DNA of 60,274 nucleotides, taken from sequence record OQ791410.1; one strand, given 5' to 3'. A program made the translations under genes and the position numbers. Source of the DNA: Escherichia phage phiG7. The stretch's first letter is position 1; each line of letters opens with the position of its first letter. The notes under the pieces are model-generated. The model saw only the letters and a program-made list of their open reading frames with translations, had not been told where the DNA came from and made no database searches. Positions 5,361 to 47,018 of this stretch are shown here, piece by piece.

Positions 5361-6173
5361 GTGAAGAGAATGAGCAACATTGAAGACAAAAAAGCCGCTG
5401 CCGCTGCTGCCGCTGCTGCCGCTGCAAAATCTGCTAAACCTGCAAAGAAAGAAGCTACTGTGAATGATGCAGAAGCTAAGAAAGCCGCTGCTGCTGAAGC
5501 TGCACGCGTAGCAAAAGAGAAAAAAGAAGCAGAGAAAAAAGCTGCCGCTGAAAAGAAACAAGCTGAAATCCGCACTGAAGCGGAAAACAAATTTAATGCG
5601 ATTGCTAACGCTGCTGAAATCCTGAAAAACTCTTTGGCTACCGTCACCGACGAAAGTACTGTTGAACAAATCACGGAAGCAGAAACTCAGGGATCTGCAA
5701 ACCTGAAGACCATTAAAGAAGCTCTGAAAGAGCTGAAAGCTGTCGTTAAGAAGTCTAAAGGTGAAGACCTGTCCGGTGCTGTAACTTCTGCCCAGGGTCT
5801 GGTGGATGGTCTGGAAGCTACTATTAAAGGCTTCAAAGACAAGATCCGTGCTGCAAAACAGGCAGAAAAAGAAGCGGAAAAAGCACGCGCTAAAGAGCTT
5901 CGTGAGAAAGAAAAAGAAGCTAACCGTATGCCGGAACAGAACGGTGTTCGCCGTCCGCAACCGGAAACTTCCTGCGGTCGTGCCTGGGCTCTGATGGACC
6001 AGATTAGCGCTACGCTGGGTCAGCCTGCTCCGATCTCTTATGTTCTGAACCTGGCTGGTCGACATGGTCTGAACGAAGATACCGTTAAAACCCAGTATGC
6101 ACGCTGGAAGAAATTTAATGGTGTGACTGGTCGCGTACCTGTACCAGTACCGGAAGCCCTGAACGGCTTGTAA
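5361..6173 (+). CDS. Ala/Lys-rich coiled-coil protein with poly-Ala run (histone H1-like composition)
   Basis: RBS GGAG upstream; 12 consecutive Ala encoded by GCCGCTGCT-type 9-bp repeats; AEKKAAAEKK repeats; followed by terminator. Confidence 0.5.
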   Translation: MKRMSNIEDKKAAAAAAAAAAAKSAKPAKKEATVNDAEAKKAAAAEAARVAKEKKEAEKKAAAEKKQAEIRTEAENKFNAIANAAEILKNSLATVTDESTVEQITEAETQGSANLKTIKEALKELKAVVKKSKGEDLSGAVTSAQGLVDGLEATIKGFKDKIRAAKQAEKEAEKARAKELREKEKEANRMPEQNGVRRPQPETSCGRAWALMDQISATLGQPAPISYVLNLAGRHGLNEDTVKTQYARWKKFNGVTGRVPVPVPEALNGL

Positions 6174-6198
6174 TATCAAAACATATCACGTTATAATG

Positions 6199-6227
6199 AA
6201 AGCGCCCAATGAGGCGCTTTCTTTTTC
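6199..6227 (+). terminator. rho-independent terminator
   Basis: Hairpin AAAGCGCC-CAATGA-GGCGCTTT then CTTTTTC. Confidence 0.7.
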
Positions 6228-6242
6228 ACTGGAGGATTTAAG

Positions 6243-6950
6243 ATGAGTATTAATCAACAAGCTCCCGAGTCTCGTTCTAAAGAAAACGATATGTATTTAG
6301 ACGTGCATTCGGTATTCTCTACCATTCAGGGTGAAGGTCCATTCTGCGGTCAACCTGCGGTATTTGTGCGCCTTGCTGGATGTAACCTGCAATGCCCGGG
6401 CTGCGACACGGATTATACTGTTGGTCGTTCTCTTTATCACATTGTTGATATCATGCGCTTGATTGAAAGCCGCAAACTGGAGTCTGGCAATAACACCTCA
6501 CTTGTGGTTATTACTGGGGGTGAACCATTCCGTCAGCAAATTAACCCGTTTGTTGAACAACTGTTATCACGCGGGTATCTTGTGCAGATTGAAACGAATG
6601 GGTCTATGCCTTTACCTAAGAACTTTTCCCAGCTACCTGTCATTGTATGCAGTCCTAAGACTTCAAAAATTCATCCTACTGTGCTGTACCGAGCAAACGC
6701 ATTTAAATATGTGCTTAAAGCGTGCTGTGTAAACGTGGAAGACGGTTTACCGCTTCAGGCATTAGATCATCAAGCTACGCCATTTATCGCTAGACCTCCG
6801 AAGGGGTTCAAGGGTAAGATATATTTACAGCCAATGGACGAGCAGGATGAAGATCTTAACCACAGTAACATCCAAGCGGTTGTCCAAAGCTGTATGAAAC
6901 ACGGGTACACGTTGCAGCTTCAGGTTCACAAATATATCGGGGTGGAATAA
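6243..6950 (+). CDS. queE: 7-carboxy-7-deazaguanine synthase (radical SAM)
   Basis: Radical-SAM CxxxCxxC motif (GCNLQCPGCDT) and QGEG motif; RBS GGAGG. Confidence 0.75.
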   Translation: MSINQQAPESRSKENDMYLDVHSVFSTIQGEGPFCGQPAVFVRLAGCNLQCPGCDTDYTVGRSLYHIVDIMRLIESRKLESGNNTSLVVITGGEPFRQQINPFVEQLLSRGYLVQIETNGSMPLPKNFSQLPVIVCSPKTSKIHPTVLYRANAFKYVLKACCVNVEDGLPLQALDHQATPFIARPPKGFKGKIYLQPMDEQDEDLNHSNIQAVVQSCMKHGYTLQLQVHKYIGVE

Positions 6951-7249
6951 TGCGTGTATTAAGTCAGGTTGTGCATACTAAAGAAGTTGAATACTTTGGT
7001 AATAAGCTTGATGTCCCTGAATGGGTACGGTGGTTGGCTACGGATCAAGACGGTACAGTTTACGGATTCGAGTATGAGCCAACGTTGATGGACAGTCAAA
7101 CTAAATGGACATCATACTGGGAAGATGATAACTTTTGTGAAATGGCAGAAGTTGACCTTGAAGGTATGGATTATAAACAAACATTAGTGAAGGTGAAAAG
7201 AAATGATCACTTTGGAAGAAGCGAAACAGCATCAGGAAATGATCACTGA
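6950..7249 (+). CDS. hypothetical protein
   Basis: 99-aa ORF, ATGA-type coupling to queE. Confidence 0.35.
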   Translation: MRVLSQVVHTKEVEYFGNKLDVPEWVRWLATDQDGTVYGFEYEPTLMDSQTKWTSYWEDDNFCEMAEVDLEGMDYKQTLVKVKRNDHFGRSETASGNDH

Positions 7250-7415
7250 GCTGGTAGAAAAACTTAATTCTGCAATTGCTCACGCTACTATGCAGGGCGT
7301 GCATGTAGAATTAGATATTAATCACGTTAGTACAATCGGGGCACGCAATCATCCAATTGTGATGTCAAACGTAACAATCAACCCTTGTGATATTAAAGGT
7401 GTAGAAGATGAATGA
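7203..7415 (+). CDS. hypothetical small protein (paralogue of next ORF)
   Basis: RBS AAGGTGA; sequence pattern similar to 7408..7596 product. Confidence 0.35.
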   Translation: MITLEEAKQHQEMITELVEKLNSAIAHATMQGVHVELDINHVSTIGARNHPIVMSNVTINPCDIKGVEDE

Positions 7416-7596
7416 AGAAACTGTAATTCTTATGCAGAAAATTCAACGTTTGCAAGACGAGTTGAATGACGCTATCTGTCGTGCTGCATCCAAGAACATA
7501 CATTCGGAGCTTGAGATTCATAAGCGTCAGATGACATCTGATGATGTAGTTGAACAAGTAGTCGTTAACCTTAATATTAGCCTTAAAGGTTTCTAA
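7408..7596 (+). CDS. hypothetical small protein
   Basis: 62-aa ORF overlapping previous by 8 nt. Confidence 0.35.
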   Translation: MNEETVILMQKIQRLQDELNDAICRAASKNIHSELEIHKRQMTSDDVVEQVVVNLNISLKGF

Positions 7597-7597
7597 A

Positions 7598-8320
7598 ATG
7601 AATAAATTAGATAAACTGGTATTCCCTGTAAAAAATCATAACTCCGCCGTTGTCGTCCTGTCTGGCGGCCAGGACAGCGTAACCTGTTTGGGCCTTGCCC
7701 TTAATAACTATGATAAGGTCTACGCTATTGGTTTTGCATACGGTCAACGTCATAACATTGAGCTGGCTTGTGCTAATCAAATTTGTAAAGAGCACGATGT
7801 CCCATTTGTTGTCTTTGAATTACCTGCTTTGAAACAGATTGGCAATAGCACTTTAATCGGGAACGAAGGTGATGTTAACGAACATCACGAACAGCACAAC
7901 AACCTTCCGGCAAGCTTTGTGCCAAACCGTAATGCGCTTTTCCTGACTACTGCGCACGCCTACGCGCAGAAAGTTGGCGCCAGATATGTGGTTACAGGCG
8001 TGTGTGAAACAGACTATAGCGGTTATCCAGATTGCCGCCAGCAGTTTGTAGACCTGCTTGAAGCTACATTAAACGTTGGATATGAAACTGATATTCATTT
8101 TGTTACACCGCTTATGCGTTTAAACAAAGCGGAAACGTTTGAGCTGGCGGATAAGGTTGGCTTCTTAACCACAGTAATTGAACAGTCCCATACTTGCTAT
8201 AACGGCGTCCGTCGCACTCTGCATGACTGGGGATATGGCTGCGGGGAATGCCCTGCGTGCAAACTTCGTGCTAAAGGGTACAGTGAATTTATGGATAACG
8301 CTTACAGTAAACACGTTTGA
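7598..8320 (+). CDS. queC: 7-cyano-7-deazaguanine (preQ0) synthase
   Basis: PP-loop SGGQDS motif, VTGVCETDYSGYPDC block, C-terminal zinc site CYNG...CGECPAC. Confidence 0.85.
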   Translation: MNKLDKLVFPVKNHNSAVVVLSGGQDSVTCLGLALNNYDKVYAIGFAYGQRHNIELACANQICKEHDVPFVVFELPALKQIGNSTLIGNEGDVNEHHEQHNNLPASFVPNRNALFLTTAHAYAQKVGARYVVTGVCETDYSGYPDCRQQFVDLLEATLNVGYETDIHFVTPLMRLNKAETFELADKVGFLTTVIEQSHTCYNGVRRTLHDWGYGCGECPACKLRAKGYSEFMDNAYSKHV

Positions 8321-8440
8321 TCTTACCGCGAAAACCGCACCGCTAGCGCATTGTTTAGGGTGCGGGAACCCAACTATACTACTAAAGCTTTTAAACCCAA
8401 CAACCAGCGAATACCGCTGTTAAAACTGGAGAACAAAAGT

Positions 8441-8920
8441 ATGAAATTTATCGTCGCTTATTTGGCTGCAATTACATTCGTAAACCTGGGCTTTTCCTAC
8501 CTTCCAATGCTTAACACGCCTCTTGGCGTGGTCCCGATGATGGCTTTCTTTGTAGGTATTATCTTTGTTCTGCGTGATTACGCACAGCGTAACGCTGGCA
8601 AAGGCGTCATCCCTGCAATGATTGTAGGTTGTATCCTTAGCTGGGTGTTCGGAGATCCTGCTGTTGTAGTTGCATCCGTTGCATCCTTTGCTCTTAGCGA
8701 GTTTGCGGATTATGCGGTATACACGATTACTAAGAAGCCTTTCCATCAACGCGTATTTATCAGCTCTTTGGTAGCTGTACCGATTGACTCCATTGTGTTC
8801 TTAAGTATTATAGGTATTGTTAATCCGGGATCAATGGTAGCAATGAGCTTAAGTAAGTTCACAGCATCTGCCATCCTTTGGGTCGTTTACGAAGTTCATT
8901 CACGTACAGCGAGAGCGTAA
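8441..8920 (+). CDS. small multi-pass membrane protein, possibly YhhQ/VUT-family queuosine-precursor transporter-like
   Basis: Several hydrophobic helices; embedded in deazaguanine cluster; start at MKFIV (RBS GGAG) preferred over 8351. Confidence 0.4.
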   Translation: MKFIVAYLAAITFVNLGFSYLPMLNTPLGVVPMMAFFVGIIFVLRDYAQRNAGKGVIPAMIVGCILSWVFGDPAVVVASVASFALSEFADYAVYTITKKPFHQRVFISSLVAVPIDSIVFLSIIGIVNPGSMVAMSLSKFTASAILWVVYEVHSRTARA

Positions 8921-8921
8921 A

Positions 8922-9479
8922 ATGAAAGATAATTTGAATAAAATTTGGCACCAACACGACGGTAAAGGAATGCCTATTTTTCTTCGTAATGAGAAGTTTG
9001 AAGTTCGTTTGCGCAACGGTACACACGTTAAGAATCTATTACATGGATGGGATTGGGCTATAGAAGGGCGTTCAGCTATGGATGAGGATAGCCCTTATAA
9101 AATTCAAGATATTATAGCCTGGCGATATATCGTTGCGGATGATTACGTCAAACAATCTATTGAAGCAAATTTGCCCGATTGGAGAACTGATAAAACCGCA
9201 ATTTTTACCAAATATGAACCATCTAAAATTCCCATGAATAAATATCAGAAAATTATTTATGGTAAAGATCAAAACGGCAATGTTGTAAAATGCATCGTGG
9301 ACGTGTATGATGTCTTGGAAGCTTGGAAAACAACTAACCCAGCTTTACAACATTTAATTAAAAAGGCGTTGCAGCTGGGCGAACGCGGTCATAAAAGTCT
9401 GGTAGAAGATTTGAAAGACATTATTGCGTCCGCACAGCGTGCATTAGAAATTGAACAGTCTAAAGAGGTATCAAAATGA
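8922..9479 (+). CDS. hypothetical protein
   Basis: 185-aa ORF, RBS GAGAG. Confidence 0.4.
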   Translation: MKDNLNKIWHQHDGKGMPIFLRNEKFEVRLRNGTHVKNLLHGWDWAIEGRSAMDEDSPYKIQDIIAWRYIVADDYVKQSIEANLPDWRTDKTAIFTKYEPSKIPMNKYQKIIYGKDQNGNVVKCIVDVYDVLEAWKTTNPALQHLIKKALQLGERGHKSLVEDLKDIIASAQRALEIEQSKEVSK

Positions 9480-9985
9480 GCTATACAGTAATTCGTTCAC
9501 ATGAAATTTGCGCCGGGCATCGTGTTGTAGGTCACGAAAGCAAATGTCGCCACCTCCACGGTCACAACTATAAGTTTCACTTTAAGGTTGCTCCGAAGCA
9601 TGGATGCGGAAAAGTAGTGACACGAGGAAAGCTGATTGAGGACGGTCTGGACAGCGTTGGGCGCGTGATCGACTTTAGTGTGGTTAAAACTACACTCTGC
9701 CAGTGGTTGGAAGATAATTGGGATCATAAATTTTTAGCCTTTGAAAAAGATCCTATGATTAAAGCGTTATATTACGCAACACCAAAGGACATTAATGCAA
9801 CGTTTAACGATATGTATACATTCCAACAATCCGTTGTATTTTTACCTTTCAACCCAACTGCGGAAAACCTAGCTGCATATATGGTTGAAGTAATTGGTCC
9901 GCTACTGCTTGACGAGCATGGTGTTCAACTTGTAGAATGCACCATCGAAGAAACTTCGAAATGTCACGTAAACTATAGCCTGTAA
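9476..9985 (+). CDS. queD: 6-carboxy-5,6,7,8-tetrahydropterin synthase
   Basis: CxxxHxH-type motif (CAGHRVVGHESKCRHLHGHNY) typical of QueD/PTPS. Confidence 0.75.
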   Translation: MSYTVIRSHEICAGHRVVGHESKCRHLHGHNYKFHFKVAPKHGCGKVVTRGKLIEDGLDSVGRVIDFSVVKTTLCQWLEDNWDHKFLAFEKDPMIKALYYATPKDINATFNDMYTFQQSVVFLPFNPTAENLAAYMVEVIGPLLLDEHGVQLVECTIEETSKCHVNYSL

Positions 9986-10021
9986 GTATGACCACATTAA
10001 CAAACAAGGAAACTGCAAACC

Positions 10022-10633
10022 ATGAGTGAATTTACCAAAATGATTAACGATGCGGAAATTAGACACAGCATTGAGAAGATTTTAAAGTTAATTGAAAATG
10101 GAGACACAGATACAGAGTTACGCGAAGGTCTTATCGAAACTCCGGCGCGTGTAGCAAAAGCTTATGCTACATGGTTTGGCGGTTATGGTGTCGATATTGG
10201 CGGGCTGTTTAAAACCTTTGAAGATGGTGCGGAAGGTACGGATGAAATGGTCATTGTCCGTGATATTCCTGTATACAGTCATTGTGAGCATCACATGGCC
10301 CCTATCATCGGTCGTGCTGTTGTGGGTTATGTTCCCAATGGGAAGATCGTTGGGCTTAGTAAACTGTCTCGCGTAGTTGATGCTTTTAGCCGTCGCTTGC
10401 AAGTCCAAGAGCGTCTAACTAACCAGATTGCAGACGCTATCCAGGAGCATTTAAACCCGAAAGCTGTATGCGTTTATATTGACGCCAAACATATGTGCAT
10501 GGAATCGCGCGGAGTTAAGCAGGTATGCGGCAGCTCTACTATTACCAAAGCGTTCCGGGGCGCTACAGAACTGGAGCATGGTAGCGATATTGGTAAAGAA
10601 TGGCGCCGGGAGTTCCTGGAAGCTTGTAAATAA
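10022..10633 (+). CDS. folE: GTP cyclohydrolase I
   Basis: [17 protein letters not shown] and GLSKLSR blocks characteristic of FolE. Confidence 0.8.
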
Positions 10634-10651
10634 TAGATAGCTTTACAGATC

Positions 10652-10690
10652 AAGCCCATATCGGTCATAATACTGGTATGGGCTTTTTAG
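10652..10690 (+). terminator. rho-independent terminator (long loop)
   Basis: AAGCCCATA ... TATGGGCTT stem then TTTAG. Confidence 0.5.
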
Positions 10691-10704
10691 TCATTGGGGG
10701 AAAT

Positions 10705-10911
10705 ATGTCAAGACAACTAATCTTAGAGACAGCATTCTACCAGCTTAAAGCAGGTACTGCGGATGCTTGTTCTGCAATACAGAATGATGCGCCTACAGAT
10801 GTCTTAAAGCAGCAGCTTATTGACGCTAAACATCGCGCGGACGAAGCATTTAATGAAGCGTGGCGTACTTTAGAACTAATTGATCAGTTTGGAGGACCGT
10901 TCCAAAAATGA
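10705..10911 (+). CDS. hypothetical small protein
   Basis: Start at MSRQL preferred; overlaps next gene start. Confidence 0.35.
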   Translation: MSRQLILETAFYQLKAGTADACSAIQNDAPTDVLKQQLIDAKHRADEAFNEAWRTLELIDQFGGPFQK

Positions 10912-11828
10912 ACGTTTTTATGGCAGCAGTTTACACGAACGGATATATGCCTGGACAGCAGCGTTATGAAAAACTGTCCGAGCATGAGAAAAATATCACG
11001 CGCAATCTGCCCCATATTTTGGAATCATATCACTACGTTGGGCGTCAGAAGTATGTTGATCAAATGCGTGCGGACGGGGCTAAAGTGTTTCTCGACTCCG
11101 GTGCATTCTCTGCGCACTCTTTGGGTGCGCACATTGATATTGTTGAATACTGCGAATACATTAAGCGCAACAAAGACATCCTTCGCGTAGAAGATGGTGC
11201 AGTAATGGCCTCGGTGCTTGATGGTATCGGTGATCCACTGCAAACCTACCGTAACCAGCTTGAAATGGAAGCACGCGGTGCTAAACCGTTACCGTGCTTT
11301 CACTTTGGTGAGGACTTCCGCTATCTTGAATATTACATGAAGAACTACGAATATATCACGATTGGTGGCATGGTAGGGCGTTCAACGGACACGCTTAAAA
11401 CTTGGCTGGACCGCATGTGGGACAAATACATTTGCGACGGTAGCGGTCGTCCTAAGATTAAGCTTCATGCATTTGGTATTACGTCCACAACCATTATGGA
11501 GCGTTACCCGTGGTATAGCTGTGACTCATCCTCCTGGATTCAAGCGGCAGCGTTTGGAAGTGTGGTTACTCCTCCGTGGGGCCCAATGCGCGTATCTGAT
11601 AAGTCACCAGACCGTCACCATTTTGGTAAGCATGTTTCAACGCTAACTGAAATTGAACAGGACGCTGTCCTTAAATACCTTGAGCAAAACGGTTTCACTT
11701 ACGAACGTTTATCAACAATCTATGAATCACGTGCCGCCTTCAACTTATGGGCGTATGGTGTAATTGCTGCAAACATTAACGCTACCCATGACGGCACATT
11801 CCGTGATCGTGTAATGGAGTTGTTCTGA
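10908..11828 (+). CDS. dpdA: DpdA-like DNA-guanine transglycosylase (TGT-fold)
   Basis: TGT-like blocks FLDSGAFS, ITIGGMVG, YSCDSSSW; location with queCDE/folE. Confidence 0.6.
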   Translation: MNVFMAAVYTNGYMPGQQRYEKLSEHEKNITRNLPHILESYHYVGRQKYVDQMRADGAKVFLDSGAFSAHSLGAHIDIVEYCEYIKRNKDILRVEDGAVMASVLDGIGDPLQTYRNQLEMEARGAKPLPCFHFGEDFRYLEYYMKNYEYITIGGMVGRSTDTLKTWLDRMWDKYICDGSGRPKIKLHAFGITSTTIMERYPWYSCDSSSWIQAAAFGSVVTPPWGPMRVSDKSPDRHHFGKHVSTLTEIEQDAVLKYLEQNGFTYERLSTIYESRAAFNLWAYGVIAANINATHDGTFRDRVMELF

Positions 11829-12055
11829 TGGCTAACTTAAGAAGACCAAAAGGTAAACGTAAATATACTCACACAGGCGTAAGAATTAATTATTACGGTG
11901 AAAACAGAGTAGTATTCCTCCACAAGACACCTAAGCAGTGGCAGGATCCGTCAGGTACATGGTTTAATGCACAAGGAAAACAAATGGGACTTTATGGATA
12001 CCCTCCTACTTGTGAATTAGATTTAACCACAATTAGAGCAATCGAGGATCGCTAA
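11828..12055 (+). CDS. hypothetical small protein
   Basis: 75-aa ORF, translationally coupled. Confidence 0.3.
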   Translation: MANLRRPKGKRKYTHTGVRINYYGENRVVFLHKTPKQWQDPSGTWFNAQGKQMGLYGYPPTCELDLTTIRAIEDR

Positions 12056-12291
12056 TGATACCAGTGTGTGAAGAATATATTACTTCCCAATCTAAAGCTG
12101 GGGGTAAAGCGGTAGGTCGTGTTGCTATCGCTAAGTTAACAAACGCGGGCTATGTACCAAAAGTTACCCCACCACCCCCTGAGCCCTGGATATGGGAGAA
12201 AAACGAGGGCCGTATTATGGCCATTACATCGTATATGGGACCTTTTAGATTAAAGATTGAGTATCTTGTAGACTTAGATGGGGACTCCTAA
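12055..12291 (+). CDS. hypothetical small protein
   Basis: 78-aa ORF, translationally coupled. Confidence 0.3.
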   Translation: MIPVCEEYITSQSKAGGKAVGRVAIAKLTNAGYVPKVTPPPPEPWIWEKNEGRIMAITSYMGPFRLKIEYLVDLDGDS

Positions 12292-13244
12292 TGCTTAACG
12301 CTCTTAAATTCGTTCAAGGCTCCGTTGCTAAAAAGGAACTGGTAGAAGGGCTTACCAGTTTTCTTATTCGTGACGGACAGGTACAAGGCTTTAACGGTGT
12401 TATTGCACTGGGCAGCCCTATTGAGCTGGATATTGATTGCAAGCCTGAAGCCGGTCCAATGATCAAGGCTATTTCAAACTGTGATGAAACAGTGCAGTTA
12501 ACAATGATGGCTAACGGTAAGCTGAATATTAAGTCAGGTCCGTTTCGTGTCGCTATACGCTGCATCGATAAAGAAACTCCGCATGTATTCCCTGAAGGGG
12601 ATCTGTATGAAATAGATGGTGCTCGCTTCGTTCATGGTGTGAAGTCAGTTGCTCCATTTGTAGGCTCGGATGCTTCCCGTCCGTGGGCTTGCGGTATTCT
12701 GATTAATAACGGTAGCCTGTTTGCTACAAATAACGTCACCATTGCGGAATACTGGTTTGGTAATCAGTTCCCTATCGATTGCATAATACCTTCCGTCGCA
12801 ATTAAAGAAATACTGCGTATTAAAGCTAACCCGACGCATATTCAGGTTAGTAAAAATAACGTAACGTTTCATTATCCGGAAGGTCGCTGGTTGCGGACAC
12901 AGCTTATTGATGCAGAGTGGCCCGATATACGTCGTATTTTAAATGTTCAATGTAATGCACATCCTGTTGATCCAGGTCTTTTCGAAGGCTTGCATAAAAT
13001 CAAACCTTTCGCTGAAGACAGACCTCGTGTATATATTGAAAACGGTCTAGCCCGTACTCACTACGATGATGCGGAAGGCGCAAGCTTCGTATTGCAGGAC
13101 CGGACAATTACGGGAGTGTACAATATTGATATCCTGCTATTGCTTGAAAATGTGGTTAAGACTGCGGACTTTAGTTTGTATCCGCAACCTTGCGCATTCT
13201 TTGGGGAAAATCTTCGCGGTGTATTAATTGGAGAACGTGTTTAA
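12291..13244 (+). CDS. DnaN-like DNA polymerase sliding clamp (beta clamp)
   Basis: Blocks resembling E. coli DnaN by eye: LIDAEWPDIRRIL vs LVDGRFPDYRRVL, IIPSVAIKEILRI vs VIVPRKGVIELMRM. Confidence 0.55.
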   Translation: MLNALKFVQGSVAKKELVEGLTSFLIRDGQVQGFNGVIALGSPIELDIDCKPEAGPMIKAISNCDETVQLTMMANGKLNIKSGPFRVAIRCIDKETPHVFPEGDLYEIDGARFVHGVKSVAPFVGSDASRPWACGILINNGSLFATNNVTIAEYWFGNQFPIDCIIPSVAIKEILRIKANPTHIQVSKNNVTFHYPEGRWLRTQLIDAEWPDIRRILNVQCNAHPVDPGLFEGLHKIKPFAEDRPRVYIENGLARTHYDDAEGASFVLQDRTITGVYNIDILLLLENVVKTADFSLYPQPCAFFGENLRGVLIGERV

Positions 13245-13836
13245 TGAAATTTTTGATTGACGGTCATCGTGACCGTATAGCTTTCCGTAAGACCCAATGG
13301 CCGGAAGGCGTTGTTGGACAATTATTAACACCATTGACCAGATATACTCGCGGTGAACCTGTATTTGCAATTGATAACGGCGCATACAGCGGGTTTCGTG
13401 AGAAAGAGTTTATTTCTCTTCTTAAACGAGAATATCATGTTAAAGAGCAATGCTTATTTGTCTGCGTTCCAGATAAAGTTGGGGATCATAAGGCTACTCT
13501 TGAAATGTGGGGCAATACAACCATCTAGCGGACGGTTGGAAGAAAGCATTTGTAGCCCAAGACGGTTGTGATAGTATTCCAAATGAAGCGGATTGTATCT
13601 TTATTGGCGGAACTACGGAGTTTAAAGATTCTGAACATGCTGCGGATATTGTTTTATGGGGATTGGAAAATAATAAGCATGTTCATATTGGACGTGTAAA
13701 CGGACCTGAGCGTTTTGCTAAATTTCACGTACTTGGCGCACATACTTGCGACGGTAGTGGTGTCAGTCGTTATGACCATATGATTCTAGCAATTAAAGAA
13801 GCAATGGAGCGGATTAAATGCGAACCGATGCTATAG
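13244..13836 (+). pseudogene. second, shorter DpdA/TGT-like paralogue interrupted by a frameshift at a G4 run (13509-13512)
   Basis: ORFs 13244..13528 and 13507..13836 in different frames; one extra G fuses them (..LEMW|GQYNHLAD..); blocks AIDNGAYSGF, IFIGGTTEF, HTCDGSGV parallel the DpdA gene. Confidence 0.5.
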
Positions 13837-15803
13837 GTTTCTTTTGGCAGGACTTACCGCCTGAGCCAAAAGCAAAGAAAGAAAAGATCAAACGTTTACC
13901 GCCGGAGCGGACTTGGGAGCGCCCGGATTATTTGCCTAACCTTGAGGAAGCGCGGAACTTCCAATACAACCTGTATACGCAGGACGAACTTATTCAAGCA
14001 TGGATTAACCGCGAACCGCTTGTATACGATATTGAATGTTATCCAAACTATTTCTTAATCGCGTTTCGCGGAGTACGGACTAAGAAAGTTGTCTACTTCG
14101 AAATGTATCACGGTTGTAGTTTGAATTGCTTGTTACTTAACTGGATAATGACAAACTTCCTTATCGTAAGCTTTAACGGTAACGGGTACGATATGCCAAT
14201 TGCTACGCTTGCGCTTAACGGCTGCTCTAATGCTCAGCTTAAAGATGCAACCGATAAGATAATCGTGGAAGACTGGCGTCCTTCCGATGTGTTGAAGAGT
14301 TACCGCCTTAAGCGTATGCAGAACGTTAACCACATTGATATTATGGAAGTTCTGCCTGGATCTGGTGGTTTGAAACAATATGGCGGACGTGTACATACTC
14401 GCCGTATGCAGGATTTACCGTTCAAGCCAAATACAATGTTGACGCAGGACCAGATGTTAATTGTACGCTGGTACTGTATTAACGACCTTGTACAGACAGA
14501 AGAATGTTTTATTGCATTACAAGAACCTTTGCACCTTCGTGAAATTATGTCGCAAGAATACGGTGTGGATCTGCGTTCACGTTCTGATGCGCAGATTGCA
14601 GAAGACGTAATTAAACACGAAATTCAAGCATTAACTGGTGTGCGTCCCCAGCGTCCCCAAGTTTATCCTGGAACAAAGTATGCGTATAACATACCGGACT
14701 TTATTCGTTTTCAAACACCTCTGATGAATAGTGTTTTGGATATTGTTCGGGACTGCCGTTTTGTTGTTAGCGATAACGGTGGCGTTAGCTTGCCCCCAGC
14801 GTTAACAGGTCTTGAAATCAAGATTGCGGACGGTGTCTACCGTATGGGTATTGGCGGTTTGCATAGCTCCGAAGAGTGTGCTGGTCACGGTAAAGAGCCT
14901 GGTATTAAGAAGCGGGACATTGACGTAACGTCTTATTACCCTTCAATTATTCTTAATCAGGGATTATACCCTGAGCAGTTGGGACCAGCGTTCCTTCGTG
15001 TTTATAAAAGTATTGTAGATCGCCGTATTGCAGCTAAGCACTCAGGGGACAAGAACACAGCCAACACGCTGAAGATCGTAATCAACGGATCGTTCGGTAA
15101 GTTAGGGTCTATGTGGTCCGTACTGTACGCGCCGCAATTATTGATACAGGTAACTATCACAGGGCAACTATCACTGTTAATGCTTATTGAAGCATTTGAG
15201 CTGAACGGTGTTAAAGTAATTTCAGCGAATACCGATGGTATTGTGGTTAAGTATCCCGACCACATGCAGGACTTCGTTGATAACATGATCAAGTGGTGGG
15301 AATCCGTCACAGGTTTTGAAATGGAATCCACTTATTATGACAAGCTATATAGCGCGAACGTTAACAACTATGTAGCTGTCAAAGAACCTGATGCAGAAGG
15401 TAACGTTGAAGTTAAGCGTAAGGGCTGGTTTGCCAAGACAGGACTTCAAAAGAACTGTACTGGTGAAATTATTATGGAAGCTGTATGTGAATGTTTGGCC
15501 CACGGTACGCCTGTTTCTCGTACTATACGCAATTGCAACGATATTAAAAAATTCATTATCCTACGTGCGGTGAAAGGTGGCGCGGTATGGAATGGCGAAT
15601 TTTTGGGTAAGGTTGTACGCTGGTATTTAAGCACCAATGAAGAAACCCCTGAAATAATCTATGCTAACTCGGGCAACCGTGTAGCTGGTAGCGCGGGAGG
15701 TGTCCCAATCATGACGCTACCGGATAAAATACCGGACGACATAGATTATGATGCTTATATAGCTAAAGCAGAGAAGTATCTCGAAGACATGGGATACGCC
15801 TAA
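13818..15803 (+). CDS. family B DNA polymerase with 3'-5' exonuclease domain
   Basis: Exo motifs YDIE, FNGNGYD, YCINDL; polymerase motifs DVTSYYPSII, KIVINGSFGKLG, NTDG. Confidence 0.75.
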   Translation: MRTDAIGFFWQDLPPEPKAKKEKIKRLPPERTWERPDYLPNLEEARNFQYNLYTQDELIQAWINREPLVYDIECYPNYFLIAFRGVRTKKVVYFEMYHGCSLNCLLLNWIMTNFLIVSFNGNGYDMPIATLALNGCSNAQLKDATDKIIVEDWRPSDVLKSYRLKRMQNVNHIDIMEVLPGSGGLKQYGGRVHTRRMQDLPFKPNTMLTQDQMLIVRWYCINDLVQTEECFIALQEPLHLREIMSQEYGVDLRSRSDAQIAEDVIKHEIQALTGVRPQRPQVYPGTKYAYNIPDFIRFQTPLMNSVLDIVRDCRFVVSDNGGVSLPPALTGLEIKIADGVYRMGIGGLHSSEECAGHGKEPGIKKRDIDVTSYYPSIILNQGLYPEQLGPAFLRVYKSIVDRRIAAKHSGDKNTANTLKIVINGSFGKLGSMWSVLYAPQLLIQVTITGQLSLLMLIEAFELNGVKVISANTDGIVVKYPDHMQDFVDNMIKWWESVTGFEMESTYYDKLYSANVNNYVAVKEPDAEGNVEVKRKGWFAKTGLQKNCTGEIIMEAVCECLAHGTPVSRTIRNCNDIKKFIILRAVKGGAVWNGEFLGKVVRWYLSTNEETPEIIYANSGNRVAGSAGGVPIMTLPDKIPDDIDYDAYIAKAEKYLEDMGYA

Positions 15804-15812
15804 TTCTACCTG

Positions 15813-15838
15813 CAGACCCTTCGCGGGTCTGTTTTAAT
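15813..15838 (+). terminator. rho-independent terminator
   Basis: CAGACCC-TTCGC-GGGTCTG then TTTTAAT. Confidence 0.7.
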
Positions 15839-17595: not shown

Positions 17596-17867
17596 CTAAA
17601 CAGTCAGGTTAGTACCGTTCTGCCCCTGAATGGTCTGAAGAGTACCGTTGTTAATGGCTTGCAGAATTGCGTTGGTGTCAACAGAAGCTTGAACTTCCAC
17701 CGGACCAGCGAAGTTACCGCGACCACCCCAACCACCATTGCCACCCCAACCGTTACCGATCCAGGAACCAATCAAACCACCGATCGCACCACCAATACCA
17801 GCCGCACCAGCTTCACCGCCGAAACCGTGCCACCGAGATTAGTAGGTAAAAGAGTCATGTCAGACAT
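17596..17867 (-). pseudogene. glycine-zipper, microcin-like small protein (possible double-glycine leader MSDMTLLPTNLGG), reading frame broken after the GG motif
   Basis: RBS GGAG 8 nt before ATG at 17867; frame 1 stops after 31 aa; the adjacent frame is open for 81 codons rich in GxxxG (AGAAGIGGAIGGLIGSWIGNGWGG); one extra G in ACGG would fuse leader and core. Confidence 0.4.
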
Positions 17868-17993
17868 AGGAAAATCTCCATATATGGATTTGTTAAGCGG
17901 ATGTAACCAACTGGTTACGAAGTAAAGCATACCCATTAACATGCTTTTTACAATGATCCATATGTAAAGATTTTGTAAATTAGGATTGACAGC

Positions 17994-18022
17994 CAATAAA
18001 AAGCGCGCCCGGAGACGCGCTG
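17994..18022 (-). terminator. rho-independent terminator after tail fibre gene (minus strand)
   Basis: AGCGCG-8 nt loop-CGCGCT followed on minus strand by TTTTATT. Confidence 0.65.
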
Positions 18023-22186: not shown

Positions 22187-22310
22187 TTTTACCTCTTGTT
22201 TCGCAGAGTTGATCAATTAATGGATGCACTATGGCATACAAATATGGTAAATTAAATTAGAATATAAAACAATATTGTCTACCATCTTTAACCACATTGT
22301 TGGAGTAATT

Positions 22311-23276
22311 ATGCCAGAGGGTATTTATATAAACTACAATGACGGCAGACCTGCAATGCAAATAACAGCAGGATTACGCGCTCCGTCTTTCTGCGCCAAC
22401 TTCAATCAACGCTGTCAATCCGATAAGACGCTAACCATCAATACACCTCTGACGCCAGGATCGCAGCTTGTCGTTATTATGACTAACCCAGTTGAAGTAC
22501 TGGAAGTATTTGATCAGACGCTAGTTATCCCCGATCCAATGTATGTAACGTCCGTAACCCGAAACGGGGACGGTGGAGTTACGTTGCGAGGTGCGGACGG
22601 ACTGGGTGCCTATAGGGGACTGCCGCAATGGGCAGGGGTGATTATGGAACTGCTACCTGTAGGAACGCGAAACGAGGGTCTATTTGCGGCTAACTCCACG
22701 GACTTCACAGCAATATCCAACGCAGCCTTTCTCATGACTTGTCAGTATTCCCAGTACGTATGGGTTAACGGCAGTATGCCATTACCTGTCGGTGGTGTTC
22801 CGTTTGCTCGCTGGAACGACCCTAACGTGTCAGTAGGTTTTGATGGTTCGAATATTATCGTTCGTAACGCAGCATATGGTGGAATTGATGACGTAGCGGC
22901 TTCTGTTGGAATGGAATTAGTAATATTTAACAATACTCCCCCACAGCCTGGTGATGGTATTACCATGACGAACAGCGCGGGGCAGGTTACGTTCTCCACG
23001 GTTAAGAAGCCTTTTGTATTCAACGGAACAGTAGATCTTAGCGCAGGCTGGCAAAATATTGGTAACAGCTTAATACAACTTGCATACACAGGCACGCTTA
23101 TTGAGAACAACGGAGGTTATAATCATATTCGCATGAACGGGATTCGCATGGCAGATAATGTGGTAGGTGCTGCAAGAAACCGCGTGGTAGGCAACTACTC
23201 GCGACAACAATTCCAAATGCCCGGTCGTAACGTGGTGATCTCAACACCGCTCATAGCTATACCAAATATGTATTAA
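22311..23276 (+). CDS. hypothetical protein on the opposite strand inside the tail module
   Basis: 321-aa ORF, RBS GGAG, AT-rich upstream region, terminator directly downstream. Confidence 0.45.
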   Translation: MPEGIYINYNDGRPAMQITAGLRAPSFCANFNQRCQSDKTLTINTPLTPGSQLVVIMTNPVEVLEVFDQTLVIPDPMYVTSVTRNGDGGVTLRGADGLGAYRGLPQWAGVIMELLPVGTRNEGLFAANSTDFTAISNAAFLMTCQYSQYVWVNGSMPLPVGGVPFARWNDPNVSVGFDGSNIIVRNAAYGGIDDVAASVGMELVIFNNTPPQPGDGITMTNSAGQVTFSTVKKPFVFNGTVDLSAGWQNIGNSLIQLAYTGTLIENNGGYNHIRMNGIRMADNVVGAARNRVVGNYSRQQFQMPGRNVVISTPLIAIPNMY

Positions 23277-46097: not shown

Positions 46098-46349
46098 TTA
46101 AGCCTCCGAACTAACATTAACTAAAGAATTTACCCAACGACCTTCTTCGAAAGGAAACTTGCAGATATATTCGGATTTACCCATATCCTCATACCATTTG
46201 TCGTAATCGTCGCATTCGTCTATATAAGGTTCCTTTTCATATGCGTATAGATCTTCGCATTTATCAACTGCAAGCCAGTTTGCCCAGGCAGGTACTACAA
46301 CCTGAGTCCCAAAATAGTTAACAATCTTTTTCCCCTCTTCTATACGCAT
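46098..46349 (-). CDS. hypothetical small protein
   Basis: 83-aa ORF. Confidence 0.3.
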   Translation of the reverse strand: MRIEEGKKIVNYFGTQVVVPAWANWLAVDKCEDLYAYEKEPYIDECDDYDKWYEDMGKSEYICKFPFEEGRWVNSLVNVSSEA

Positions 46350-46544: not shown

Positions 46545-47018
46545 TCATTTACCGTGGTTTTCGTGGAAATTATACAGCAATTCCGCTTCCTTTCGTACCT
46601 TAACTGCTTCATCAAATTTGTCAAAACGACCTAAAAATACATTCTTTTTATTCGCTCTTATAGTTACAAACCATTTTAAATTCTTTCTGTCCCAACTTAC
46701 ACCAGTAACTCCGCTTGTGTTACTGATATATTTTCCTTTATTTTGACAGTTTACTACAGCACTAACTAAACGTAAATTTTCAATTCGGTCATTTTGTCGG
46801 TCATGGTCAATGTGATCAATTTCCATACCTTCCGGAATAGTTCTTCCGTGCATTAACCACACAATGCGGTGCCGTAGGTATTGCTTACCTTCAAATACTA
46901 TTCTCGTGTATCCATCCTCTTGAACACATCCTGCTCTGCTACCTGCGTTTATACATCGTCTACTTACTTTCCAATAAAGGACTCCGTCCCTATATTCAAA
47001 TATATCGTTCCAGTTCAT
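46545..47018 (-). CDS. HNH endonuclease with AP2-type DNA-binding domain
   Basis: HNH motif EIDHIDHDRQNDRIENLRLV; AP2-like GVSWDRKNLKWFVTIRANKKNVFLGRFD. Confidence 0.65.
   Translation of the reverse strand: MNWNDIFEYRDGVLYWKVSRRCINAGSRAGCVQEDGYTRIVFEGKQYLRHRIVWLMHGRTIPEGMEIDHIDHDRQNDRIENLRLVSAVVNCQNKGKYISNTSGVTGVSWDRKNLKWFVTIRANKKNVFLGRFDKFDEAVKVRKEAELLYNFHENHGK

Follow-up and report, generated by a model that had tools for sequence, protein, structure and literature searches.

A predicted dPreQ0 DNA-modification module of the CAjan type in Escherichia phage phiG7 and a compact, frameshifted DpdA homologue downstream of it

Introduction

The replacement of guanine by 7-cyano-7-deazaguanine (preQ0) in DNA, cited as a recognised phage anti-restriction strategy in an earlier sequence-only reading of the locus considered here, has been demonstrated in phage CAjan (Seuratvirus, Queuovirinae; Hutinet 2019, Kot 2020), whose dpdA mutant lacks the modified deoxynucleoside dPreQ0 and is restriction-sensitive (PMC6884629). 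The DNA of CAjan contains 70,628 dPreQ0 per 10^6 nucleotides (nt), corresponding to ~32% of G, and no other 7-deazaguanine (PMC6884629); modification affects G within GA and GGC contexts (PMC7544227). Escherichia phage phiG7 (sequence record OQ791410.1), whose sequence of 60,274 nt was analysed at its full length and is referred to as the window, carries a cluster of the same type at positions 6243-11828 and, 1.4 kb downstream of it, a compact DpdA-like gene designated X; both are described here in comparison with the known systems.

The genetic requirements of the modification have been defined in CAjan by deletion mutants: in the absence of folE, queC, or dpdA the nanopore signal falls under the detection cut-off, and the deletion of yhhQ keeps the modification (PMC7544227). 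In the queC mutant analysed by liquid chromatography-mass spectrometry, ~12-fold less dPreQ0 remains, which derives from host preQ0 (PMC6884629, PMC7544227). According to the published rule, FolE, QueD, QueE, a stand-alone QueC, and DpdA lead to dPreQ0, and the fusion of an amidotransferase (Gat) to QueC leads to dG+ (PMC6884629). The FolE/QueD/QueE and DpdA1 logic is shared by phiG7 and Enterobacteria phage 9g (Nonagvirus, Queuovirinae; PMC6884629); in contrast to phiG7, in which the QueC domain is alone and dPreQ0 is predicted, 9g possesses the Gat-QueC fusion and produces dG+ (archaeosine). In the Seuratvirus DruSM1, deletions of the open reading frames (ORFs) ORF41-48, belonging to a region described as 'moron, auxiliary metabolic gene and host takeover', make the phage less infective where the host has BREX type I and restriction-like systems (bioRxiv 10.1101/2024.04.14.589459); this region presumably corresponds to the deazaguanine cluster.

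Organization of the phiG7 cluster and comparison with CAjan

The cluster of phiG7 is a CAjan-type Seuratvirus dPreQ0 anti-restriction module, a system that is already known. It is composed of eleven ORFs on the + strand, many of them overlapping or abutting, and its ends coincide exactly with the start of QueE and the stop of DpdA (Table 1). Six ORFs were named by profile searches (QueE, QueC, YhhQ-like, QueD, FolE, and DpdA), and the sole profile matches of the remaining five (orf99, orf70, orf62, orf185, and orf77) are PHROGs of unknown function; in particular, the Pfam search with orf70 gave no match. The set FolE, QueD, QueE, and QueC, which had been proposed from the sequence as sufficient for preQ0 synthesis, is complete and shows 75-98.3% identity to the CAjan orthologues.

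The gene order is that of CAjan, namely QueE, two small ORFs, QueC, YhhQ, an ORF of unknown function, QueD, FolE, a small ORF, and DpdA, followed in both phages by the clamp and PolB genes. In contrast to CAjan, phiG7 has an additional ORF, orf99, between QueE and orf70, where positions 6953-7201 are unmatched in CAjan, a further one (orf78, 12055-12291), and a 0.57-kb gene, X, between the clamp and polymerase genes, and it is devoid of gp39. Between QueE and orf70 the gene content seems to vary, since the metagenomic locus L005 carries a different ORF of 148 amino acids (aa) there. A paralogue of orf99, likewise matching phrog_1972, is located far from the cluster at 46098-46349 (-) (BLASTP 2e-10, 42% identity over 45 aa).

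The megablast search with the interval returned 52 phage records, 30 of which cover at least 80% of it (82-96%) at 91-96% nucleotide identity; these 30 records are Seuratvirus or close relatives, including Seurat, CAjan, and BASEL Bas24 SeppeHuegi, and the annotations of the relatives list QueE/QueC/YhhQ/QueD/FolE/DpdA in unchanged order. A 2026 preprint mentions phiG7 itself among the classified Seuratviruses. Collinearity with CAjan extends over almost the whole window, which is circularly permuted with respect to it, position 1 / 59670 of CAjan mapping to 41102/41103 of the window, which represents a complete ~60-kb genome; therefore, nothing of the modification pathway can sit outside it.

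Table 1. Coordinates of the modification cluster, of gene X, and of the possible edges of the transcription unit in the phiG7 window
Feature	Position	Strand	Evidence
Promoter-like site, upstream edge of unit	6168-6197		consensus scan
Strong terminator-like hairpin, 9-bp stem (6 GC pairs) then TTTTT	6198-6221	+	consensus scan
QueE, 7-carboxy-7-deazaguanine synthase (radical SAM)	6243-6950	+	phrog_2076 3e-68; 97.9% identity to CAjan gp45
orf99	6950-7249	+	phrog_1972 2e-23; not in CAjan or Bas24
orf70, conserved cluster ORF	7203-7415	+	phrog_26258 3e-51; 97% identity to CAjan gp44
orf62, conserved cluster ORF	7408-7596	+	phrog_24420 6e-45; 87% identity to CAjan gp43
QueC, 7-cyano-7-deazaguanine (preQ0) synthase	7598-8320	+	PF06508 2e-74; TIGR00364 6e-72; 98.3% identity to CAjan gp42
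YhhQ-like (Vut_1) membrane protein, putative preQ0 transporter	8441-8920	+	98.7% identity to CAjan gp41
orf185, variable N-terminal part	8922-9479	+	phrog_23361 4e-108; 55% identity to CAjan gp40
QueD, 6-carboxytetrahydropterin synthase	9476-9985	+	PF01242 (PTPS) 2.6e-22; 74.7% identity to CAjan gp38
FolE, GTP cyclohydrolase I	10022-10633	+	PF01227 3e-62; TIGR00063 2.5e-56; 86.7% identity to CAjan gp37
orf77, conserved small ORF	10678-10911	+	phrog_20065 2e-40; 92.6% identity to CAjan gp36
DpdA (DpdA1 subfamily), predicted preQ0-inserting DNA guanine transglycosylase	10908-11828	+	phrog_887 2e-96; 99.7% identity to CAjan DpdA
X N-terminal half (phiG7_20), 94 aa	13244-13528	+	phrog_15826; identical to WJN62468.1
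X C-terminal half (phiG7_21), 109 aa	13507-13836 (-1 frame)	+	phrog_15826 2e-15; identical to WJN62469.1
X frameshift site	13509-13512	+	G4 run vs G5 in 10 intact metagenomic gene copies (alignment)
Terminator-like hairpin past DNA polymerase gene, possible downstream edge	15812-15832	+	consensus scan

Assignment of the enzymes and of the putative transporter

The profile searches suggested by the sequence-only reading as a check for each gene were successful in part: the QueC, FolE, and PTPS models scored above their cut-offs, whereas the QueE models remained sub-threshold and DpdA was recovered by a PHROG profile only. QueC is a protein of 240 aa that exceeds the cut-off of TIGR00364 and whose QueC domain fills residues 17-231, so that no amidotransferase is fused to it and its description as a stand-alone enzyme is correct; FolE is over the cut-offs of both PF01227 and TIGR00063. 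QueD, which carries a CRHLHGH motif, is over the gathering score of PF01242, and its match to NCBIfam TIGR03367 (2.6e-17) reaches 63 bits vs a cut-off of 89. The five best NCBIfam matches of QueE are all QueE models with E-values from 1e-27 to 2e-20, under the equivalog cut-offs, and its translation shows the CX3CX2C radical-SAM (S-adenosylmethionine) motif in the form CNLQCPGC.

The 306-aa DpdA, proposed from the sequence as a DpdA-like enzyme with the fold of tRNA-guanine transglycosylases (TGTs), has no Pfam match, and the label of phrog_887 is 'queuine tRNA-ribosyltransferase'. It differs from CAjan DpdA by a single substitution, A182P, and retains D63, S64, F67, D105, H132, G153, G154, F189, and D206, the nine preQ0-pocket and catalytic residues assigned by Kot et al. 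(PMC7544227). The small multi-pass membrane protein that had been supposed to be a precursor transporter would be the published YhhQ-like 'putative preQ0 transporter' (PMC7544227). It contains several hydrophobic 19-mers and scores under the cut-offs for both Vut_1 (3.9e-5, 24.5 bits vs 27.2, with profile positions 58-140 covered) and TIGR00697 (1.8e-4, 21.4 bits vs 50.95); its length is 159 aa, and E. coli YhhQ has ~220 aa. The assignments of QueE, QueD, the YhhQ-like protein, and DpdA are thus due to PHROG profiles together with CAjan orthology.

Amidotransferase (Gat), ArcS, QueF, and methyltransferase domains were not detected in the cluster ORFs or in the phiG7 genes without CAjan counterpart, among which the search for tailoring enzymes returned no more than an HNH endonuclease and a DUF6453 protein. 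Elsewhere phiG7 is collinear with CAjan, whose annotation lists no Gat-QueC, ArcS, QueF, or QueF-L. Because QueC is stand-alone and no amidotransferase, ArcS, or QueF was found, a modification of the preQ0 type is the best prediction; the earlier preference for this type over the archaeosine type agrees with the published rule (PMC6884629).

Predicted function and alternative explanations

Starting from GTP, the free base preQ0 would be formed by FolE, QueD, QueE, and QueC; once the phage DNA has been replicated, DpdA would then exchange guanine for preQ0 in the double strand, as a base-exchange enzyme with the TGT fold. The expected target sites are 5'-GA and 5'-GGC, with ~28-32% of G modified; G in GA or GGC contexts accounts for 28.5% of G in the window vs 28.1% in CAjan. 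DNA modified in this way would resist many restriction enzymes as well as defences of the BREX type, and the YhhQ-like protein would probably be involved in the salvage of external preQ0 and be dispensable. The interval is very probably the dPreQ0 DNA-modification module of phiG7; its chemistry, site specificity, and protective role are those we infer by orthology.

Several points weigh against this interpretation. QueE, QueD, and the YhhQ-like protein miss curated thresholds of NCBIfam or Pfam, and DpdA lacks a Pfam match altogether; with 75% and 87% identity, respectively, QueD and FolE are clearly more distant from their CAjan counterparts than the remaining enzymes; the modification of phiG7 DNA is itself predicted from orthology to CAjan; and the five small cluster ORFs without an assigned role could add a tailoring step. 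This last point leads to a first alternative, in which the final base would be another derivative (dG+, dADG, dPreQ1, or dCDG) made by one of these ORFs, considering that orf99, orf70, orf62, orf185, and orf77 have no assigned function and orf99 is not in CAjan. However, orf70, orf62, orf185, and orf77 are common to CAjan, whose DNA holds dPreQ0 only, the distant paralogue of orf99 argues against a cluster-specific role, and the domains of the known tailoring steps (amidotransferase, QueF, ArcS, and methyltransferase) were undetected, which leaves this alternative very improbable. A role of the cluster in tRNA queuosine/archaeosine metabolism, that is host tRNA modification and translation tuning instead of DNA modification, is suggested by older GenBank annotations ('queuosine biosynthesis', 'queuine tRNA-ribosyltransferase') and can be practically dismissed: QueA, QueG, QueH, and QueF are all missing, the tRNA scan of the window found zero tRNA genes, DNA modification is lost in the CAjan dpdA mutant (PMC6884629), and the DpdA of 9g did not complement an E. 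coli tgt mutant, yet put preQ0 into DNA (PMC6884629). The Rfam scan of the window was also empty, so no preQ1 riboswitch is present.

The assignment of the cluster to dPreQ0 synthesis and insertion thus makes phiG7 DNA modification at GA and GGC sites predictable with confidence. The cluster itself offers nothing new and represents one more Seuratvirus with a well-studied module; the part worth following up is X, a member of a very large phage family that occurs with full-length DpdA in unrelated phage groups.

Gene X, a compact DpdA homologue outside the cluster

The sequence-only reading had also counted a second DpdA-like paralogue in the cluster; the relationship to DpdA is supported by profile comparison, whereas the location is not, since no second DpdA-like gene is present inside 6243-11828. 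X is found at 13244-13836 (+), between the genes of the sliding clamp (12291-13244) and of the DNA polymerase (13818-15803), a position at which CAjan and Bas24 have no gene, and it is frameshifted. Its N-terminal half shows 94.5% identity to P0067, an intact metagenomic protein, over residues 1-91 of the latter, and closes with 5 out-of-frame codons followed by TAG at 13526-13528; the C-terminal half, in the -1 frame, is 95% identical to residues 90-197 and carries GG, HxHxGR, and C-D-G-S-G motifs. The -1 frame is blocked upstream by TGA at 13501-13503. When joined by a -1 shift, the two halves give a protein of 197 aa with 96% identity, without gaps, to P0067, whose gene likewise sits between clamp and polymerase on a Seuratvirus-like contig of 59.5 kb. 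In a collection of 50,697 phage records, the only matches of X at the DNA level are SHIN8, where the gene is also split, and Vibrio phage vB_VpaS_R29Z, where it is intact (194 aa) with the same synteny. The phiG7 genome as sequenced contains one intact DpdA and, because of the frameshift, X probably contributes nothing.

The relationship of X to DpdA is below the reach of simple searches: no match was found in Pfam or NCBIfam, pairwise BLASTP of X vs DpdA was not significant, and the X and DpdA1 sequence profiles gave no meaningful match in the PDB. In profile-profile comparison a shallow DpdA alignment yielded a probability of 11-28% (E 6e-4), and the alignment by hhalign of 111 X-family and 125 diverse DpdA1 sequences reached 93.1% with an E-value of 3.3e-7 over 132 collinear columns. 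The AlphaFold2 model of X is a (beta/alpha)8 barrel (predicted local distance difference test score 95, predicted template modelling score 0.91). In a fold search of viral models, several phage 'queuine tRNA-ribosyltransferases' are among the top matches of X; nevertheless, pyruvate kinase and transaldolase barrels score as high as TGTs, and since generic TIM barrels score equally, the fold searches alone cannot place X in the TGT family.

Among 111 diverse members of the family Q106, G122, and G123 are invariant and D44, D77, and D170 are at least 90% conserved. The hhalign alignment pairs these positions with residues of DpdA (D44-D63, D77-D105, Q106-H132, G122-G123 with G153-G154, and D170-D206), so that, at the alignment level only, X would possess equivalents of the DpdA catalytic Asp pair and of the base-recognition residues. 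As judged from these profiles, X is a true DpdA homologue. The protein is, however, reduced in size: in contrast to the TGTs of bacteria and archaea and to bacterial DpdA (PDB 3unt, 1iq8, 7ui4), it has ~197 aa and is devoid of the Zn-binding subdomain and of the C-terminal domain, and compared with DpdA1 it lacks the N-terminal ~50 and the C-terminal ~95 residues (~211-306 missing). It ends 27 residues past the nucleophile; past position 175, Y177, D178, and M180 alone are conserved in close relatives and none in the diverse set.

Origin of the frameshift in X

At the site of the lesion the intact close alleles read ATGTGGGGGCAA, while phiG7 and SHIN8 read ATGTGGGGCAA, that is four G instead of five. 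Apart from this run, phiG7 X and the intact G5 allele L025 agree at all the other 593 positions; SHIN8 X is 1 nt off the intact alleles L027-L029 and shows 10 differences vs phiG7 X. Since the two isolates are nearest to different intact alleles, the same contraction is present on two different allele backgrounds. Half-proteins of X are recorded only for these two cultured isolates, the intact 197-aa protein is indexed on >40 contigs, mostly of ~60 kb, and in all ten metagenomic gene copies inspected at the DNA level (L003, L021-L029) the gene is intact. No match for X was obtained in complete E. coli genomes and plasmids, and neither the G4 nor the G5 allele was recovered from IMG/VR or JGI metagenomes by exact-pattern scanning.

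The explanation that survives best, though it falls somewhat short of being probable, is that the frameshift is real and recurrent and that the loss of X, a conditionally costly accessory gene, is selected during isolation or propagation on laboratory E. coli. It is favored by the restriction of the split halves to cultured phiG7 and SHIN8 as opposed to the intact inspected metagenomic copies, and by the occurrence of two events on separate backgrounds, one at 0 nt from its nearest intact allele, the other at 1 nt from a different one, with 10 nt separating the two. On the other hand, only n=2 isolates are concerned, a G5 run is a modest mutational hot spot only, no mechanism for a fitness cost is known, and the same data fit an artefact. 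If the contraction is real, a second activity that modifies DNA would seem to carry a cost depending on the host.

The possible but rather doubtful alternative is a site-specific sequencing or assembly error, in which case the real phiG7 X would be intact and would encode, alongside DpdA, a second deazaguanine transglycosylase with another motif or substrate. The identity with L025 outside the G run is consistent with such an error, as is the status of X as a genuine DpdA homologue with conserved catalytic residues; moreover, the contracted run belongs to a GGC motif, where dPreQ0 would be expected, the quality of nanopore reads is lowered by modified DNA (PMC7544227), and SHIN8 shows the same contraction on another allele background. 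Against an error stand the presence of the lesion in two independent submissions and the quality of the phiG7 assembly, in which another 25 runs of 5-6 bases (G or C) are resolved and none of the other genes conserved with CAjan is clearly frameshifted. Should the contraction prove an artefact, the lesson would be that G runs carrying dPreQ0 may be miscalled.

Other explanations of the split gene were considered and rejected. The reading of the frameshift as a lost C, obtained by comparison with the more distant allele L005, was overturned by the closer intact alleles, which show a G5-to-G4 change. Purifying selection on both halves, deduced from 7-8 synonymous vs 2 non-synonymous differences between phiG7 and SHIN8, was withdrawn because nine of the ten differences are already found among the sampled intact alleles, the tenth being SHIN8-only. 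Programmed -1 frameshifting finds no support: a canonical slippery heptamer is lacking, the z-score of the downstream RNA fold is only -0.79, and the intact alleles need no recoding. An independent start of the C-terminal half is likewise unsupported, as the one AAGG upstream of the GTG lies at a distance of 13 nt and SHIN8 does not have it.

Distribution and genomic context of the X family

The X family, for which no Pfam model exists, is large: the search of 1.84 billion representative proteins with the X profile retrieved 2,605 clusters (50% identity level) at E <=1e-3, nearly all of 190-230 aa. Annotators of SEA-PHAGES already use the label 'DpdA-like' in Mycobacterium and Arthrobacter phages, and their 'DpdA-like tRNA-guanine transglycosylase' of ~200 aa, as in Mycobacterium phage Majeke gp54 and Arthrobacter phage Sonali gp81, belongs to the X family (tblastn 32-36% identity, E 1e-14 to 1e-16); unlike phiG7 X, these genes are intact. 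Sonali encodes X together with full-length DpdA and QueC/D/E, and in Fishburnevirus mycobacteriophages X is found alone. No experimental study of the family was found in the searched literature.

In other loci X homologues overlap a Vut_1/YhhQ gene (L008, 8001-9546; L017, 369-1431; L018), lie between QueC and QueD (L012, 112-1819), or adjoin Dam or N6/N4 DNA methyltransferases (L010, 1048-2153; L011; L016; L019, 10001-11373; L020). These contexts fit a role in DNA modification in which a 7-deazaguanine base would be used, and it is such an activity that we infer for X. A further X-family context is found in L014 (4947-5564 and 7934-10525). P0359, a protein of 209 aa encoded at 105-734 of L009, a 752-nt ENA contig, resembles QueC in its N-terminal part (4e-22) and the X profile in its C-terminal part; this would be explained either by a fusion or by a chimera resulting from frameshift or misassembly between neighbouring QueC and X genes.

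A speculative and rather unlikely proposal is that X represents a compact subfamily of 7-deazaguanine DNA transglycosylases which, in some Queuovirinae and actinophages, joins DpdA1 to serve a second motif or substrate and is counter-selected on laboratory E. coli. Counter-selection of this kind would explain the G5-to-G4 change in both cultured carriers and the intact state of the uncultured copies inspected. X is a genuine and under-studied side finding, located outside the interval and broken in phiG7 as sequenced.

Transcription unit and other genome observations

The promoter-like and terminator-like sites listed in Table 1 suggest, as pattern matches only, that the modification genes, the clamp, X, and the polymerase could form one long transcription unit extending from QueE to PolB. 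Within this stretch, orf78 (+, 78 aa), located between an ORF named orf75 and the sliding clamp, has neither a CAjan counterpart nor a Pfam match.

Other differences from CAjan are found elsewhere in the window. The HNH_3 endonuclease at 46545-47018 (-) (3e-17) is encoded in a segment missing from CAjan; it probably entered this group of small early genes as a mobile element of the homing type. At 22275-23276 (+), in a segment that CAjan lacks, the gene of the DUF6453 protein (333 aa, 2e-130) is oriented against the tail genes around it. For the stretch at 17599-17996 (-), homologous to the beginning of CAjan gp21, the alignment runs in two different frames (residues 1-56 and residues 58-133 of the extended ORF). 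The shift may be due to an indel or to an alternative start, close to a recombination junction that adjoins the divergent tail-fibre region.

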